From: a virus
Taxonomy: Duplodnaviria > Heunggongvirae > Uroviricota > Caudoviricetes
IMG/VR virus record: IMGVR_UViG_2740892443_000001
Length of the DNA: 6,998 nucleotides
Direction: 5' to 3' (one strand)
Below are positions 1 to 6,998 of this stretch, piece by piece; the stretch's first letter is position 1, and every line of letters begins with the position of its first letter. The notes under the pieces were generated by a model. It saw only the letters and a program-made list of their open reading frames with translations. It did no database searches and was not told the origin of the DNA. Made by a program: the position numbers and the translations under genes.

Positions 1-1164
1 TTACGCCTTCTTTATATCCTCCATAATTCCAGAGTGGGACATATTTGGGACATTATCACCAAAAATGTCGTCTATTTTCCTCGCATGCTCTGTCAAATGA
101 TTAGGCGCAAGGTGAGCATACCTACGAACCATTTCTATGGACTCCCATCCGCCCATTTCCTGAAGCACTGATAATGGGACGCCTGACTGAATCAGCCAGC
201 TTGCCCAGGTGTGTCTGAGGTCATGGAAACGGAAATCTTCAATTCCTGCACGACGACAAGCTGATAGCCATGATGTCTTGCTGTCGATGCGCATCTTCCT
301 GACCGCAGGCGTTGATGTTCCATCTGCTCGCTTAGCCGCCTTGGTATGTACAAACACCCATTTGTGATGCTTGCCTATTTGATCACGCAACACTTTACAG
401 GCGGTATCGTTCAGCGCCACACCAATGGCGCGGTTTGATTTGCTCTCTTCTGGATTCACCCAGGCAACTCGTCGCTGCATGTCGATTTGTTGCCATTCCA
501 GATTTATGATGTTCGACTTTCTCAGACCAGTTGCCAGCGCAAACTTGACGACAGATTTCAGTGGTTCGGGGCACTCATCAATAAGGCGTTTTGCTTCCTC
601 CTTTTCCAGCCATCTGACTCGCTTGTTTCTGACCGCTGGTATCTTGATGACAGGCGCTTTTTCCAGCCACTTCCAGTCGCGTTCTGCAGCACGGAGAATG
701 GCCTTTATCATGGCAAGATGCTTTGCCTTTGTCTGAGTTGATACTGGCTTTGGTTCATAAACAGGCGGTTCTTTACCTTTCCTGATGGCGGCCTGAACTT
801 TCTGTTTCCATATTTCTTTCGTCTTTCTGTTATGCATTCTGCTTACAGCAGAGTAAATCTTTGCCTCCGAGATATCTTTAAGCCTTATACCCTCAAAATG
901 TTCAAGCCAGAACTCAATCCGGCTTTTATCTGAATCGAGAGATTTTTTATCAGCTTTTTCCTCAAGCCATCTTAGGCAGGCCTCTTCAAAAGTGACATCA
1001 GGTAAATCCCCTAGCTTTTCTACTCGCCAGAGTTCTGCTTTTCGCTTGTCGTGCAACTCCTGAGCTTGCCGCTTGTCCTTTGTGCCAAGAGATTCCTTAA
1101 TTCGTTTCCCGCCCGGGAGCGAATACGAGGCATACCATATTTCATTTCTGCGGAAGAGTGACAT
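1..1164 (-). CDS. int: Tyrosine-type phage integrase (lambdoid, e14/Rac-like family)
   Basis: 387-codon ORF on the minus strand, ATG at 1164-1162 and TAA at 3-1. An SD-like GAGG lies 7 nt upstream of the ATG (minus-strand sequence TAACAGAGGAAAGAAA-ATG). The translation carries the C-terminal tyrosine-recombinase signature: [10 protein letters not shown] (HxxR box) and VRRYAHL (catalytic Tyr). Overall sequence matches my recollection of E. coli e14 IntE / Rac IntR-type integrases and is unlike lambda Int; not database-verified. Confidence 0.9.
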
Positions 1165-1391
1165 TTTCTTTCCTCTGTTATGCCATCACCCGCGCTCACC
1201 TGGACAGTATGCAGCGGAGACTGAAGCGCCGCAATGCAGGCTTGCCGTGTTGTGAGGTAAGGAGATTTTGGCTTGGTTGGATCTTTACGTGTTGCCTGTA
1301 GGCGGCCTGTTCGTATCCAGTTGGTGGCGGTTGGTCTGGATATCTTAAGAAACTGACAGGCCTCATCGAGTGTGAGGCTGTATGATTCCAT
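1020..1391 (-). CDS. xis: Excisionase (Xis/AlpA-type HTH protein)
   Basis: ATG at 1391-1389 is preceded on the minus strand by GAGAGAGG with a 5-nt spacer. The translation [31 protein letters not shown] shows the helix-turn-helix typical of Xis/AlpA excisionases. It lies directly upstream of int in the same orientation. The ORF stays open to TAG at 1022-1020, overlapping the int start by about 145 bp in another frame, so the 3' end is uncertain. The upstream ATG at 1439 was not used because it lacks an RBS and would lie inside the plus-strand head-gene ORF. Confidence 0.6.
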
Positions 1392-1414
1392 GGTTACCTC
1401 TCTCAGGAGGGCGA

Positions 1415-1810
1415 ATGACCAAAGAGACTCAATCAACAACTGTTTCAGCCACTGCTTCGCAGGCTGACGTTACTGACGTGGTGCAAGCGACGGAGGGCGA
1501 AAACGCCAGCGCGGCGCAGCCGGACGTGAACGCGCAGATCACCGCTGCGGTTGCGGCAGAAAACAGCCGCATTATGGGGATCCTCAACTGTGAGGAAGCT
1601 CACGGACGCGAAGAACAGGCACGTGTGCTGGCCGAAACCCCCGGTATGACCGTGGAAACGGCCCGCCGCATTCTGGCAGCTGCACCACAGAGTGCACAGG
1701 CGCGCAGTGACACTGCGCTGGATCGTCTGATGCAGGGGGCACCGGCACCACTGGCTGCAGGTAACCCGGCATCTGATGCCGTTAACGATTTGCTGAACAC
1801 ACCAGTGTAA
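1415..1810 (+). CDS. Nu3: Capsid scaffold Nu3 / C-terminal part of the prohead protease C reading frame (lambda-type)
   Basis: ATG 1415 is preceded by AGGAGG (1405-1410); 131 codons run to TAA at 1808-1810, which ends 9 nt before the D start, the arrangement expected for the nested C/Nu3 frame upstream of D in lambda-type head operons. The product is Ala/Gln/Glu-rich and low in complexity, as scaffolds are. The frame is closed by an in-frame TGA at 1373-1375, so the body of protease C is absent. Whether 1415 is the native Nu3 start or an internal Met cannot be settled from the sequence alone; assignment rests on synteny, not on a recalled sequence match. Confidence 0.6.
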   Translation: MTKETQSTTVSATASQADVTDVVQATEGENASAAQPDVNAQITAAVAAENSRIMGILNCEEAHGREEQARVLAETPGMTVETARRILAAAPQSAQARSDTALDRLMQGAPAPLAAGNPASDAVNDLLNTPV

Positions 1811-1819
1811 GGGATGTTT

Positions 1820-2152
1820 ATGACGAGCAAAGAAACCTTTACCCATTACCAGCCGCTGGGCAACAGTGACCCGGCACATACGGCAACCGCGCCCGGCGGA
1901 TTGAGTGCGAAAGCGCCTGCAATGACCCCGCTGATGCTGGACACCTCCACCCGTAAGCTGGTTGCGTGGGATGGCACCACCGACGGTACTGCCGTTGGCA
2001 TTCTGGCGGTTGATGCTGACCAGACCAGCACCACGCTGACGTTCTACAAGTCCGGCACGTTCCGTTATGAGGATGTGCTCTGGCCGGAGGCTGCCAGCGA
2101 CGAGACGAAAAAACGGACCGCGTTTGCCGGAACGGCAATCAGCATCGTTTAA
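1820..2152 (+). CDS. D: Head decoration protein (lambda gpD-like)
   Basis: 110-codon ORF with SD AGGGA (1810-1814) 5 nt upstream of ATG 1820 and TAA at 2150-2152. The translation [43 protein letters not shown]...[36 protein letters not shown] is near-identical to lambda gpD as I recall it. The in-frame ATG at 1814 was rejected because its spacing to the SD is poor. Confidence 0.92.
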
Positions 2153-2170
2153 CCTTACCCTTCATCACTA

Positions 2171-2194
2171 AAGGCCGCCTGTGCGGCTTTTTTT
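2171..2194 (+). terminator. Terminator-like GC hairpin plus T7 run in the D-E intergenic spacer (possible attenuator)
   Basis: Seen directly: GCCGC (2174-2178), loop CTGT, GCGGC (2183-2187), extendable by G-U and A-U pairs at 2171-2173 / 2188-2190, followed by seven T (2188-2194). A second T7 run (2201-2207) lies immediately before the E start codon. Function is not established. Confidence 0.35.
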
Positions 2195-2207
2195 ACGGGA
2201 TTTTTTT

Positions 2208-3083
2208 ATGTCGATGTACACAACCGCCCAGCTGCTGGCGGCAAATGAGCAGAAATTTAAGTTTGATCCGCTGTTTCTGCGTCTCTTTTTCCGTGAGAGC
2301 TATCCCTTTACCACGGAGAAAGTCTATCTCTCACAAATTCCGGGACTGGTAAACATGGCGCTGTACGTTTCGCCGATTGTTTCCGGTGAGGTTATCCGTT
2401 CCCGTGGCGGCTCCACCTCTGAATTTACGCCGGGATATGTCAAACCCAAGCATGAGGTGAATCCGCAGATGACCCTGCGTCGCCTGCCGGATGAAGATCC
2501 GCAGAATCTGGCGGACCCGGCTTACCGCCGCCGTCGCATCATCATGCAGAACATGCGAGACGAAGAGCTGGCCATTGCTCAGGTCGAAGAGATGCAGGCA
2601 GTTTCTGCTGTGCTTAAGGGCAAATACACCATGACCGGTGAAGCCTTCGATCCGGTTGAGGTGGATATGGGCCGCAGTGCGGCGAACAACATCACACAGT
2701 CCGGTGGTACGGAGTGGAGCAAGCGTGACAAGTCCACGTATGACCCGACCGACGATATCGAAGCCTATGCGCTGAACGCCAGCGGCGTGGTGAATATCAT
2801 CGTGTTTGATCCGAAAGGCTGGGCGCTGTTCCGTTCCTTCAAAGCCGTCAAGGAGAAGCTGGATACCCGTCGCGGCTCTCATTCCGAGCTGGAGACAGCG
2901 GTAAAAGACCTGGGCGAAGCGGTGTCCTATAAGGGGATGTATGGCGATACGGCGATCGTCGTGTATTCCGGACAGTACGTGGAAAACGACGTCAAAAAGA
3001 ACTTCCTGCCGGACAACACGATGGTGCTGGGGAACACTCAGGCACGCGGTCTGCGCACCTATCCGGCAGGAAACACTGAATGA
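2208..3083 (+). CDS. E: Major capsid protein (lambda gpE-like), C-terminally truncated at a deletion junction; probably non-functional
   Basis: ATG at 2208 begins MSMYTTAQLLAANEQKFKFDPLFLRLFFRESYPF..., which matches lambda gpE through ...[10 protein letters not shown] (codon 285). The ORF then reads PAGNTE and stops (TGA 3081-3083), giving 291 aa against 341 aa for lambda gpE as I recall it. The GTG at 2181 listed in the ORF track is not the start. The D-to-E spacer of 55 nt matches the lambda arrangement I remember. Confidence 0.85.
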   Translation: MSMYTTAQLLAANEQKFKFDPLFLRLFFRESYPFTTEKVYLSQIPGLVNMALYVSPIVSGEVIRSRGGSTSEFTPGYVKPKHEVNPQMTLRRLPDEDPQNLADPAYRRRRIIMQNMRDEELAIAQVEEMQAVSAVLKGKYTMTGEAFDPVEVDMGRSAANNITQSGGTEWSKRDKSTYDPTDDIEAYALNASGVVNIIVFDPKGWALFRSFKAVKEKLDTRRGSHSELETAVKDLGEAVSYKGMYGDTAIVVYSGQYVENDVKKNFLPDNTMVLGNTQARGLRTYPAGNTE

Positions 3084-3750
3084 ATGCACCCGTGCGGAGC
3101 AGTCGGCCAGCGTGGTGCTCTGGGAAATCGACCTGACAGAGGTCGGTGGAGAACGTTATTTTTTCTGTAATGAGCAGAACGAAAAAGGTGAGCCGGTCAC
3201 CTGGCAGGGGCGACAGTATCAGCCGTATCCCATTCAGGGGAGCGGTTTTGAACTGAATGGCAAAGGCACCAGTACGCGCCCCACGCTGACGGTTTCTAAC
3301 CTGTACGGTATGGTCACCGGGATGGCGGAAGATATGCAGAGTCTGGTCGGCGGAACGGTGGTCCGGCGTAAGGTTTACGCCCGTTTTCTGGATGCGGTGA
3401 ACTTCGTCAACGGAAACAGTGACGCCGATCCGGAGCAGGAGGTGATCAGCCGCTGGCGCATCGAGCAGTGCAGCGAACTGAGCGCGGTCAGTGCCTCTTT
3501 TGTACTGTCCACGCCGACGGAAACGGACGGTGCCGTTTTTCCGGGACGTATCATGCTGGCCAACACCTGCACCTGGACCTATCGCGGTGATGAGTGCGGT
3601 TATAGCGGTCCGGCGGTCGCGGATGAATATGATCAGCCGACGTCCGATATCACGAAGGATAAATGCAGCAAATGCCTGAGCGGCTGTAAGTTTCGCAATA
3701 ACGTCGGCAACTTTGGCGGCTTCCTTTCCATTAACAAACTTTCGCAGTGA
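2941..3750 (+). CDS. L: Tail-tip protein L (lambda gpL-like) lacking its native start; ORF opens from an ATG inside E in a different frame (fusion ORF, likely pseudogene-like)
   Basis: From about 3061 the translation [69 protein letters not shown]...[28 protein letters not shown] matches lambda gpL from residue 4 to its C-terminus, including the Cys cluster; stop TGA at 3748-3750. The native first three codons (MQD) are absent. The only upstream in-frame ATG is 2941, which has an AAGGGG 4 nt upstream and adds about 40 non-native residues translated from the E gene in an alternative frame. Confidence 0.6.
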
Positions 3751-5735
3751 ATCCCATGACAGAGACAGAATCAGCGATTCTGGCGCACGCCCGGCGATGT
3801 GCGCCAGCGGAGTCGTGCGGCTTCGTGGTGAGAACACCGGAGGGGGAAAGATATTTTCCCTGCGTGAATAAGGGACGCTTCCTGAACAACATTAACGCGG
3901 TCAGTAAAACAGACTTTGCTGATAAGCGTGGTATGCGTTATGTGCGGGTTAACGCTCCTGCAGGTGCAACATCTGGAAAATATTACCCTGTTGTTGTTAT
4001 GCGTTCTGCTGGCTCAGTAAGCGAACTGGCATCAAGGGTCATTATCACCACGGCAACGCGAACCGCAGGCGATCCGATGAATAACTGCGAGTTTAACGGA
4101 TTTGTTATGCCTGGTGGCTGGACTGACAGGGGGCGTTATGCTTATGGAATGTTCTGGCAATATCAAAACAATGAACGAGCCATCCACTCAATAATGATGA
4201 GTAATAAGGGCGATGATTTGCGCTCTGTGTTCTATGTTGATGGCGCTGCTTTCCCTGTTTTTGCGTTTATCGAAGATGGCCTGTCAATATCCGCACCTGG
4301 TGCTGATCTCGTTGTTAATGATACGACCTATAAGTTTGGGGCAACAAATCCGGCGACTGAATGTATCGCGGCGGACGTTATCCTTGATTTTAAGAGTGGG
4401 CGTGGTTTTTATGAGTCTCATTCGTTAATCGTTAACGATAACTTGTCGTGCAAAAAACTTTTTGCCACAGACGAAATTGTAGCGCGTGGTGGTAATCAGA
4501 TTCGAATGATAGGTGGGGAGTATGGGGCATTATGGCGTAATGATGGCGCTAAAACTTACCTGCTGCTTACCAATCAAGGTGATGTTTATGGTGGCTGGAA
4601 TACATTAAGACCGTTTGCTATTGATAACGCAACCGGCGAACTGGTTATTGGAACCAAACTGTCCGCAAGTCTGAACGGTAATGCATTAACAGCAACAAAG
4701 CTGCAAACGCCAAGACGGGTTTCTGGTGTTGAGTTTGATGGTTCCAAAGATATTACTTTAACCGCCGCGCATGTGGCTGCTTTTGCCAGAAGGGCAACGG
4801 ATACATATGCCGATGCGGATGGTGGCGTTCCCTGGAATGCCGAATCAGGCGCTTATAATGTCACCCGCTCTGGCGACAGCTATATTCTGGTTAACTTCTA
4901 TACCGGAGTCGGAAGTTGCCGGACCTTGCAGATGAAGGCGCATTACAGAAATGGTGGTCTGTTCTACCGTTCTTCAAGAGACGGTTATGGTTTTGAGGAT
5001 GACTGGGCAGAAGTTTATACCTCGAAAAATCTTCCACCAGAAAGCTACCCAGTCGGCGCACCAATCCCGTGGCCATCAGATACCGTTCCGTCTGGTTATG
5101 CCCTGATGCAGGGGCAGACTTTTGACAAATCTGCTTACCCGAAACTTGCAGCCGCTTATCCGTCAGGCGTGATCCCTGATATGCGTGGCTGGACGATTAA
5201 GGGCAAACCTGCCAGTGGTCGGGCCGTATTGTCTCAGGAACAGGACGGCATTAAATCGCATACCCACAGCGCCAGCGCATCCAGTACAGATTTGGGGACG
5301 AAAACCACATCGTCGTTTGATTACGGCACTAAATCCACGAATAACACTGGTGCGCATACCCATAGTTTAAGTGGCAGCACGAATGCAGCTGGTAATCACA
5401 GCCATAGAGATGGCCGTCGATTTAACCCCAGTGTTTTTAAAGATACTTATCAATATGGTTATACAAGCTCAGGTCAAAATACCTGGGGTGTACAAGGCTC
5501 AGTAGGTATGTCTACGGGGTGGTTAGCGAATACCAGTACAGATGGTAATCATAGCCATTCACTGTCCGGCACAGCAGCATCTGCAGGTGCACACGCGCAT
5601 ACTGTCGGTATTGGTGCTCATACGCACTCCGTTGCGATTGGTTCACATGGACACACCATCACCGTTAACGCTGCTGGTAACGCGGAAAACACCGTCAAAA
5701 ACATCGCATTTAACTATATTGTGAGGCTTGCATAA
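3747..5735 (+). CDS. stf: Chimeric side tail fibre protein: gpK-like N-terminal ~40 aa fused in-frame to a tail-fibre shaft and a lambda Stf-like C-terminal tip
   Basis: One uninterrupted ORF, with GTG at 3747 overlapping the L stop (GTGA) and the first ATG at 3756; stop TAA at 5733-5735. The N-terminus [25 protein letters not shown]... fits the MPN/JAB-type start of lambda tail protein K. The middle part (about 3870-5050) is AT-richer and contains a fibre-type motif ([27 protein letters not shown]). The C-terminus from [48 protein letters not shown] through the HxH repeats to ...[18 protein letters not shown] matches the lambda Stf C-terminal region as I recall it. Confidence 0.8.
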
Positions 5736-6310
5736 TGGCATTCAGAATGAGTGAACAACCACGGACCATAAAAATTTATAATCTGCTGGCCGGAACTAAT
5801 GAATTTATTGGTGAAGGTGACGCATATATTCCGCCTCATACAGGTCTGCCAGCAAACAGTACCGATATTGCACCACCAGATATTCCTGCTGGCTTTGTGG
5901 CTGTTTTCAACAGTGATGAGGCATCGTGGCATCTCGTTGAAGATCATCGGGGTAAAACGGTTTATGACGTGGCTTCCGGCGACGCGTTATTTATTTCTGA
6001 ACTCGGTCCGTTACCGAAAAATGTTACCTGGTTATCGCCGGAAGGGGAGTTTCAGAAGTGGAACGGCACAGCCTGGGTGAAGGATACGGAAGCAGAAAAA
6101 CTGTTCCGGATCCGGGAGGCGGAAGAAACAAAAAACAACCTGATGCAGGTAGCCAGTGAGCATATTGCGCCGCTTCAGGATGCTGCAGATCTGGAAATTG
6201 CAACGGAGGAAGAAATCTCGTTGCTGGAAGCATGGAAAAAGTATCGGGTATTGCTGAACCGTGTTGATACGTCAACTGCACAGGATATTGAATGGCCAGC
6301 ACTGCCGTAG
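5735..6310 (+). CDS. tfa: Tail fibre assembly chaperone (lambda Tfa-like)
   Basis: ATG at 5735-5737 overlaps the stf stop (TAATG), implying translational coupling. The translation [93 protein letters not shown]... matches lambda Tfa as I recall it; stop TAG at 6308-6310. The extreme C-terminus may differ slightly from lambda. Confidence 0.9.
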
Positions 6311-6407
6311 GGTAAAACATATAAATTCTATAATTAGATGTATCTTTCCATTTACGGCAAGGAAGGGGGCTTGGAAGACGTAAAGCATCTCACACCGAGA
6401 TTATTTT

Positions 6408-6998
6408 TTATATGTCAGGTGTCTGAAGTTTTGCTTTGGCTCTTAAAATGGTTTGCCGCGAGGTTTTGAATTCCCGGGCAATGGCACTTATACTTACACC
6501 TGACTTAATTCGTTCGAATACCGCCTGTTTCTGTTCTTCATTTAACACAGGTGGTCGACCAAAACGTTTCCCTGCGCCGCGGGCTCTTACTATCCCGGAA
6601 TGAGTGCGTTCAAGTAAAAGGTCTCGTTCAAATTCAGCGACTGCTGAAATTACTTGCATCATCATTTTTCCTGTTGGACTGGTCAGGTCAATGCCCCCCA
6701 ATGCTAAGCAATGCACTCTGATACCTGTTTCGGTCAGTTGTTCCACTGTTTTCCTGATATCCATTGCATTACAACCAAGGCGATCCAGTTTTGTCACAAT
6801 CAATTGATCACCACATTTCAGGCGAGCAAGCAACCGGTTAAAACCAGGACGCTCACTGGTTGCTGCTGAGCCGCTAATGTGTTCTTCGATTATTTGCTGA
6901 GGTTTGATTTTAAAACCTGCACTTTCGATTTCCCGGCGTTGATTTTCGGTGGTCTGATCCAGCGTTGATATCCGACAGTAAGCAAAAATTTGAGACAT
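6408..6998 (-). CDS. Small serine recombinase (resolvase/invertase family) with C-terminal HTH
   Basis: 196-codon minus-strand ORF with its ATG exactly at 6998-6996 (window edge) and TAA at 6410-6408. The translation shows serine-recombinase hallmarks: N-terminal YCRISTLDQ (catalytic Ser), [46 protein letters not shown], and a C-terminal HTH ([18 protein letters not shown]). It is clearly diverged from the Hin/Gin/Pin/Cin invertase cluster and is not PinE/PinR-like from memory. Confidence 0.85.

Follow-up and report, generated by a model that had tools for sequence, protein, structure and literature searches.

The window analysed here, a stretch of 6,998 bp, matches positions 3303331-3310328 of the Escherichia coli EC596 chromosome (NZ_CP156718.1) at 100% identity. 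According to the RefSeq annotation of EC596, the intD integrase gene lies at its left end on the reverse strand (1..1164), in a region 99.93% identical to the integrase region of Escherichia phage PhiR34_1, and an excisionase-like fragment (xis') is annotated with it. Junction 1 (1399..1401, located by BLASTN and parental comparison) joins xis' to a 5'-truncated gene for the S49 peptidase C/Nu3 (1400-1810, RefSeq), after which come the head decoration gene D (1820-2152, RefSeq) and a 3'-truncated major capsid gene E (E', 2208..3062, forward strand), which holds codons 1-285 of 341 and was assigned by BLASTN, Pfam and RefSeq. At Junction 2, defined by comparison with lambda and PhiR34_1, a TAT at 3060..3062 joins E codon 285 to codons 3/4 of the tail-tip gene L. 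What remains of L ('L, 3061..3750, forward strand; BLASTN, Pfam and RefSeq) comprises codons 4-232 and the stop, with its own ATG deleted. A 38-codon fragment of K follows (K', 3756-3869, RefSeq), and Junction 3 (3868..3870, BLASTN and parental comparison) joins K codon 38 in frame to the middle of the tail-fibre gene stf. The 5'-truncated stf (3867-5735), tfa (5735-6310) and, on the reverse strand, the gene of a Pin-type recombinase (6408-6998) complete the window in the RefSeq annotation.

In the EC596 chromosome, a tRNA-Arg gene ends 16 bp before the window start and intD (RefSeq annotation), and fimZ is the left chromosomal neighbour of the remnant. On its other side lie ydfK, a YnaM-family gene, a methyltransferase gene, a tfa fragment, appY, ompT and envY, and a 40-bp repeat of the tRNA-Arg 3' end flanks the remnant region on both sides (L001, positions 5941 and 17999). 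The window is a remnant of a DLP12-type lambdoid prophage adjoining the argU tRNA-Arg gene in E. coli: it sits at argU with intD at the left end and the tRNA 3'-end repeat at the right, it is collinear with an intact lambdoid phage, and genes essential for phage growth are gone. Some three quarters of the genomes of E. coli and Shigella are described with an occupied argU/DLP12 locus, and DLP12 sits at argU in most strains (PMC6379469).

The closest intact relative is PhiR34_1 (PV340559.1; 44,626 bp), which combines DLP12-type genes with a lambda-type head-tail module ending in stf-tfa-pin. Its DLP12-type genes include an intD-like integrase gene, an SMR transporter gene, ybcK/ybcL/ybcM/ybcN, ninE and ybcO, together with rusA, ylcG, Q, an ompD/nmpC-type porin gene, S-R-Rz and bor. 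Four blocks of the window align with this phage by BLASTN, all on the same strand and in the order of the phage genome: window 1-1401 with PhiR34_1 18-1418 (99.93% identity), 1399-3062 with 24475-26138 (99.76%), 3060-3870 with 32601-33411 (99.75%) and 3868-6998 with 40432-43562 (99.90%). One parental prophage and deletions in cis suffice to explain the window, because all four blocks are similarly identical to PhiR34_1 (99.75-99.93%). The three gaps measure 23,059, 6,465 and 7,023 bp, 36.5 kb in total, and have removed the repressor, replication, Q, lysis, terminase and portal genes and most of the tail genes. At each of the three joints the microhomology is exactly 3 nt, namely TCT at Junction 1, TAT at Junction 2 and ATA at Junction 3.

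DLP12, the cryptic lambdoid prophage of E. coli K-12, occupies this locus as well (Lindsey et al. 1989, cited in PMC6379469). Like the window remnant, it has a tRNA-Arg gene directly before intD as the attachment locus, a ybcY-type methyltransferase gene, tfaX', appY, ompT and envY on the right-hand side and the 40-bp tRNA-Arg 3'-end repeat on both sides, and both have decayed by internal deletions. K-12 DLP12 has retained its early, nin and lysis regions and nohD and has lost D, E and L. Compared with it, the window remnant has lost the early, nin and lysis regions and has retained C'-D-E'::'L-K'::'stf-tfa-pin. Its deletion junctions, Junction 2 included, are its own and not those of K-12 DLP12.

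Comparison with phage lambda (NC_001416) enabled us to follow Junction 2 at the level of single bases. By BLASTN, the E block (window 1399-3062) corresponds to lambda 5326-6989 at 97.5% identity and the L block (window 3060-3870) to lambda 13437-14247, and the lambda E and L genes are 97.5-97.7% identical to their window counterparts. The breakpoint is set at lambda 6989/13437, with an overlap of 3 nt between the two blocks in the window. The window reads ...GGTCTGCGCACC-TAT-CCGGCAGGAAACACTGAATGA... around the joint, or GCGCACC-TAT-CCGGCAGG in a shorter view, with TAT at 3060-3062. On the E side, lambda reads ...GCGCACC TAT GGCTGC, where TAT (6987-6989) is E codon 285; on the L side it reads ATGCAGGA TAT CCGGCAGG, where TAT (13437-13439) lies across L codons 3/4. 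PhiR34_1 is the same as lambda at both breakpoint sites, so that the TAT is present in both parental genes of both phages, and an earlier note on this DNA was right to place the breakpoint inside it. E and L have different bases on either side of TAT (C/A before it, G/C after it), which makes the microhomology exactly 3 nt. Furthermore, an in-register comparison of the breakpoint surroundings found no extended or imperfect homology beyond TAT, with 14/63 identical positions against a null of about 15/60.

In lambda and PhiR34_1, a distance of 6.45-6.47 kb, which includes FI to M, separates the complete E and L genes, whereas in the window they are fused. Measured on lambda the loss is 6,450 bp, and on PhiR34_1 it is 6,465 bp; it covers E codons 286-341, the genes FI, FII, Z, U, V, G, T, H and M, and L codons 1-3; this agrees with the earlier note, which had several kb of head-completion and tail genes missing. 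Both flanks of Junction 2 come from one parent in preserved order and orientation, with no filler between them. The illegitimate, microhomology-mediated deletion that had been proposed is therefore supported, as it fits the 3-nt match, the absence of filler and the lack of other homology. For random deletions in PhiR34_1, the probability of a microhomology of at least 3 nt is 0.056 and that of at least 2 nt is 0.163. The 3-nt match at Junction 2, taken alone, is thus marginally above chance; the junction itself is unambiguous.

The deletion destroyed E and left L without a start codon. The lambda E gene (6135-7160) has 341 codons, the length given in the earlier note, and therefore 56 E codons have been lost and E is not full length in the window. 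Its native sequence stops at codon 285 (...RGLRTY), where the lambda codon TAT aligns with window 3060-3062. Beyond the joint, the E frame reads TAT CCG GCA GGA AAC ACT GAA TGA, that is Y-PAGNTE-stop, so that L sequence read in the E frame supplies the six-residue non-native tail and the stop that had been predicted (3063..3083, forward strand, with TGA at 3081-3083; ORF 2181/2208..3083 in the ORF list). The product with this foreign tail, E(1-285)+PAGNTE, would have 291 aa. Residues 5-285 of E' match positions 1-276 of the 329 positions of the Pfam profile PF03864 (Phage_cap_E), and RefSeq labels E' as 'major capsid protein, incomplete, missing C-terminus'.

The L sequence lies one frame off E and resumes at its codon 4, an ATC at 3061 from which the translation runs IRQETLNEC, as had been read from the sequence alone. 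'L matches the full Pfam profile PF05100 (Phage_tail_L, 1-206), and RefSeq calls it as 'minor tail protein L' (WP_034166819.1, 229 aa) from the ATC codon, a call for an intact protein that we read as an annotation artefact. The L frame is open upstream to an ATG at 2941, which lies in out-of-frame E and is preceded 4 nt upstream by AAGGGG; the resulting ORF (2941..3750, forward strand, ORF list) would encode 40 foreign residues followed by L 4-232, 269 aa in all. No called gene with this 269-aa product is recorded, as we found when using it to search for carriers. Both the native late promoter and the gene for the Q antiterminator fall in the 23-kb gap, and no excess of promoter-like sites was found. 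We know of no role in tail assembly for lambda L alone, without H, M, K, I and J. Relative to PhiR34_1, E' carries four substitutions (two synonymous and two non-synonymous) and 'L one changed codon, too few for any selection test.

Junction 2 is carried well beyond the window. A 300-bp query over the junction found full matches in five complete-genome records among 5,426 genomes, which represent three strains: EC596 (human, China), ECL27977 and ECL27829 (lambs, Canada). The 291-aa junction-specific product is on record on 181 contigs and the 229-aa L call on 217; the entries belong to E. coli, with one labelled Shigella boydii. The tally of draft contigs is thus about 180-220, and the chromosomal context was inspected in the seven places displayed, all seven of which have the junction gene between fimZ/argU and appY/ompT. 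A 32-mer over the junction matches one metagenome contig and one IMG/VR contig, the latter equal to window 1-6310 with one mismatch, and has no match among GTDB species representatives. These data bear on whether the joint might be an artefact of assembly or of prophage prediction in which two lambda-like regions have been chimerically combined. In extent, the window is close to that 6,310-bp IMG/VR 'viral' contig, and lambdoid repeats are a known source of misassembly. However, the identical junction stands in closed chromosomes of three strains from different sequencing groups, the draft contigs that share it come from several sources, and the inspected contigs all have the same chromosomal flanks. 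On the strength of the three closed genomes and about 200 draft contigs we rejected an artefact, which we hold to be extremely improbable. Junction 2 is confirmed to the base.

With at least 120 IMG/VR contigs inspected per side, the only partners found for either endpoint of Junction 2 were its native neighbour and the opposite endpoint. Because neither endpoint is re-used with another partner, Junction 2 looks like a one-off, a single inherited event. The carriers of the ECL27977 type have the same Junctions 2 and 3, and still possess rzpD, iss/bor and more of C. They show two older joints: Ja (xis'::Rz'), which connects PhiR34_1 1524 to 17641 with the microhomology TTA, and Jb (bor-downstream::C'), which connects 18708 to 24033 with TA. 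Junction 1 is a later deletion of about 1.6 kb inside such an arrangement, one that only some carriers have, ECL27977 (L002) being without it. Junction 1 is younger than Junction 2, because ECL27977-type carriers have Junction 2 yet keep rzpD-iss and more of C. L013 is a further variant. At the same locus, NT1N25 and its relatives share the xis'::Rz' joint but have decayed along another route, with an IS in Rz and with bor-downstream sequence joined directly to stf.

Junction 3, a deletion of 7,023 bp relative to PhiR34_1, has a stf-side breakpoint at ...CCCGATA|AGGGACGC. This breakpoint is re-used with at least six different partners: K' in the window, bor-downstream sequence in NT1N25, nu1 in L086, a ClpP-like protease gene in L119, an unknown gene in L090 and Z in Z142-3. 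The K-12-like nu1'::'stf junction of L086 was not found as such in complete genomes, but the Z142-3 variant came to light in looking for it; in Z142-3, a 409-bp FII-Z island is stranded between nu1' and the stf breakpoint common to Junction 3.

The islands raise the question of whether one serial template-switch event after the collapse of a replication fork (MMBIR/FoSTeS-like) produced both Junction 2 and Junction 3, and perhaps further joints, with the 811-bp L-K' block as a copied 'island' between two switches. Junctions 2 and 3 occur together in every real genome examined, both have a microhomology of 3 nt, and the island of Z142-3, reaching from nu1' to the same stf breakpoint, is analogous. 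Sequential events in one lineage predict such co-occurrence equally, however, and the metagenome contig L018 (OGIT01001719.1) has Junction 2 without Junction 3, though it may be chimeric. We consider a joint origin of this kind quite improbable.

The contig L018 combines Junction 2 and the E allele of the window with an intact L-K-I-J region that, starting at window position 3201, belongs to another allele. The E of L018 is truncated at its 5' end as well (at window 2445), where it runs into a hypothetical gene; E. coli MDR_56 has the same 5' join, adjacent to an integrase-primase-SSB-capsid island. L018 may be a genuine recombinant or else a chimeric assembly. If it is real, Junction 2 would be older than Junction 3 and would have moved between loci by homologous recombination, and simple vertical inheritance would be an incomplete account.

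Across the remnant family, all six deletion junctions compared have microhomologies of 2-3 nt, and the chance of at least 2 nt at 6/6 junctions is about 2e-5; as two of the six share the stf breakpoint, counting 5/5 independent sites gives about 1e-4. The microhomologies are almost all A/T, and TA is present in four of the five independent sites (post hoc P about 8e-5). Joining driven by annealing does not predict such TA-rich, A/T microhomologies, and the bias hints at a more specific process than simple annealing. Junction 2 could accordingly be one product of a directed, TA-centred dismantling that strips late operons from lambdoid prophages repeatedly; A/T-only joints nearly throughout, the re-use of the stf breakpoint and the stranded islands (L-K' and FII-Z') are hints in this direction. 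Candidate processes are trace-free IS3/IEE insertion-deletion-excision and repeated breaks or template switches that start from one particular site in the tail-fibre gene. We regard a directed dismantling as unlikely on present evidence.

Insertion sequences could enter the history of Junction 2 more specifically. An IS3-family element may have inserted in the late operon, caused an adjacent deletion and left by trace-free excision ('insertion-deletion-excision'), perhaps aided by the IS-excision enhancer IEE and followed by repair through microhomology-mediated end joining. IS3-family elements are active in the argU locus and in sister prophages (NT1N25, CUVET19-1426, L014 and 19KM2326N): Rz of NT1N25 contains an IS (about 1.33 kb; 5-bp duplication), CUVET19-1426 has IS1203 near the xis'/Rz' junction (Ja), L014 has an IS in its stf remnant, and in 19KM2326N an IS3-family element lies exactly at a Z'/'stf deletion junction. 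Moreover, IEE is reported for over 30% of E. coli assemblies, deletions adjacent to an excising IS can be as small as a few nt or exceed 40 kb (PMC9943667), and the route 'barely leaves traces' (PMC8860574). It would also explain the fixed stf endpoint of Junction 3. Against it, no IS or IS fragment lies at Junction 2 (3060-3062) in any carrier examined, and neither endpoint of the junction is joined to other partners. There is no IS at the recurrent stf breakpoint in CUVET19-1426 or 19KM2326N, and the element of 19KM2326N sits at another stf position. We judge an origin of Junction 2 through an IS improbable. It and the single multi-switch event stay alive at low probability and leave the basic verdict unchanged.

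The remnant still has two intact recombinase genes, pin and intD, and Junction 2 might have arisen by site-specific recombination at quasi-sites, carried out by its Pin serine invertase or its IntD integrase. All junctions share at least 2 nt, most of them TA; 2 nt is the minimum of shared sequence for a serine recombinase. We scanned PhiR34_1 for Din-type cores with the pattern AAACCNNGGTTT at no more than two mismatches, and they occur at chance frequency (20 found vs 21 expected). The scan with this consensus placed no core at Junction 2 or at the other junctions; the only one on any breakpoint examined, at 19844-19855, falls on the nu1 breakpoint of L086 and Z142-3. A Pin/Din crossover at Junction 2 was rejected, given cores at chance frequency and none on the joint. 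With regard to IntD, Int-type exchange requires an identical overlap of 7 bp and only 3 nt are common at Junction 2, whose flanks match the argU att region at 10/15 positions against a null mode of 9-10. A secondary att site for IntD was likewise rejected, its similarity to the att region being no better than that of random sites. Overall, we find site-specific recombination by either enzyme very improbable.

Collectively, Junction 2 is probably the scar of a single illegitimate deletion at the level of microhomology in a DLP12-type prophage at argU, which was then inherited vertically. About 6.5 kb, from E codon 285 to L codon 4, would have been lost inside the integrated prophage, and the ends may have been joined at the 3-nt TAT by RecA-independent illegitimate recombination, through either a template switch during replication or a double-strand break followed by microhomology-mediated end joining. 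This one step would have cost the prophage E function, FI, FII, Z, U, V, G, T, H and M and the start codon of L. At least five such deletions (Ja, Jb and Junctions 1, 2 and 3) may have shrunk the phage from about 44.6 kb to the roughly 7-8.6 kb of the remnant, and Junction 2 would have been passed on vertically thereafter in one E. coli lineage. We infer this enzymology and the single origin from features that are directly observed, namely the joint and its parents, the microhomology, the lack of other homology and the spread. End joining and template switching at microhomologies and large IS-adjacent deletions are documented in E. coli (PMC9943667, PMC8860574). Junction 2 resembles the products of microhomology end joining and of IS3+IEE deletion in its kb-scale loss, its few shared nucleotides and the absence of a residual element. 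It differs in that A/T-only, TA-rich joints like those of the remnant family were not found described as a hallmark of those pathways.

In conclusion, Junction 2 is an ordinary feature of an already-annotated kind, the scar of a deletion inside a cryptic lambdoid prophage. It presents one step in the decay of a DLP12-type prophage at base resolution and matters little alone. The junction-spanning 32-mer or the 291-aa ORF can serve as a lineage marker for the remnant in about 200 public assemblies, and the joint exposes two annotation artefacts, the RefSeq L protein that begins at ATC and the IMG/VR listing of the remnant as a viral genome. Further work might be worthwhile only on the recurrent stf breakpoint and the TA-rich joints. 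The nested series from PhiR34_1 through the ECL27977-type to the EC596-type remnant provides material for studying how a prophage is whittled down, and shows which genes are kept: intD, D, tfa, pin and iss/bor.

The remnant family differs in the content flanking Junction 1 (xis'::C/Nu3'). A segment of about 1.6 kb present in ECL27977-type carriers (4402-6010 of locus L002) is missing from the EC596-type remnant at window 1399-1401, and it includes rzpD and the serum-resistance gene iss/bor. A third variant of this part of the remnant was identified in the comparison locus L013.

In E. coli MDR_56 (NZ_CP019903.1, 2739014-2758713), an island lies directly 5' of a 5'-truncated lambda E, which is followed by a complete lambda FI-to-J tail module. 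The island encodes an integrase, an HTH regulator, a primase and an SSB, together with major capsid and decoration proteins of its own, and it resembles a capsid-forming satellite that abuts, or is fused to, the tail module. The joint between the island and 'E is shared by 17 complete genomes. The metagenome contig OGIT01001719.1 (1560-2985) carries Junction 2 (E'::'L) with the E allele of the window and without Junction 3 (K'::'stf). It has the MDR_56-type joint at about codon 79 of E, and its L-K-I-J allele is divergent from window position 3201 onward. This contig is either a chimeric assembly or a recombinant in which Junction 2 was moved to a different locus.

The start-less L remnant (window 3061-3750) is annotated in RefSeq as an intact 229-aa protein, WP_034166819.1, with its start at an ATC codon, and this sequence was found on 217 contigs; other gene callers place the start at GTG 3112, giving 212 aa. 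The RefSeq call is probably an annotation artefact. IMGVR_UViG_2648501299_000004 (6,310 bp, identical in extent to window 1-6310) is listed in IMG/VR as a viral genome, though it is a non-viable remnant containing an integrase and pieces of head and tail genes.

The DLP12-type remnants and their sister prophages harbour active IS3-family elements. A roughly 1.33-kb element, accompanied by a 5-bp duplication, interrupts Rz in NT1N25 (L005, 3066-4396), IS1203 lies near the xis'/Rz' joint in CUVET19-1426 (L345, 2091-3304), and the stf remnant of locus L014 holds another (~11969-13297, corresponding to window ~4170). In the Qin-locus prophage of strain 19KM2326N, an element sits exactly at a Z'/'stf deletion joint (L346, 5899-7076).

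The deletion joints of the remnant family (window 1399-1401, 3060-3062 and 3868-3870; L002 4502-4507 and 5569-5570) have the microhomologies TCT, TAT, ATA, TTA, TA and TA, with A or T at 15 of the 16 bases. TA occurs in four of the five independent joint sites (P ~8e-5 against random deletions, calculated post hoc). Joints so rich in A/T and TA are not predicted by simple annealing-driven joining.

Junction 3 creates an in-frame fusion (window 3756-5735) of K codons 1-37, including the start codon of K itself, with the last 622 residues of the side tail fibre, yielding a 659-aa ORF that has the domains Gp34_trimer, Collar and gp37_C. An analogous in-frame fusion, Z(1-29)::stf, was found in Z142-3 at the identical stf position. 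The stf breakpoint, between ...CCCGATA and AGGGACGCTTCC, recurs to within 2 nt next to at least six distinct left-hand partners: K' in the window (3868-3870, PhiR34_1 40431-40435), the bor-downstream region in NT1N25 (L005 5270), nu1 (L086 7013), a ClpP-like protease gene (L119 5345), an unknown gene (L090) and Z in Z142-3 (L347 3055-3057). The 32-mer adjoining the breakpoint has the native stf flank in 105 of 109 IMG/VR contigs. The stf breakpoint looks like a hot spot for site-specific breaks or template switches. PhiR34_1 also contains an exact inverted repeat of 10 bp, ATACCCGATA / TATCGGGTAT, at 40425-40434 and 42806-42815. The end of its left arm coincides exactly with the stf breakpoint, and its right arm forms part of the conserved tfa 3' end (window 6242-6251); the probability that the reverse complement of this 10-mer would occur by chance within 3 kb is ~0.006.
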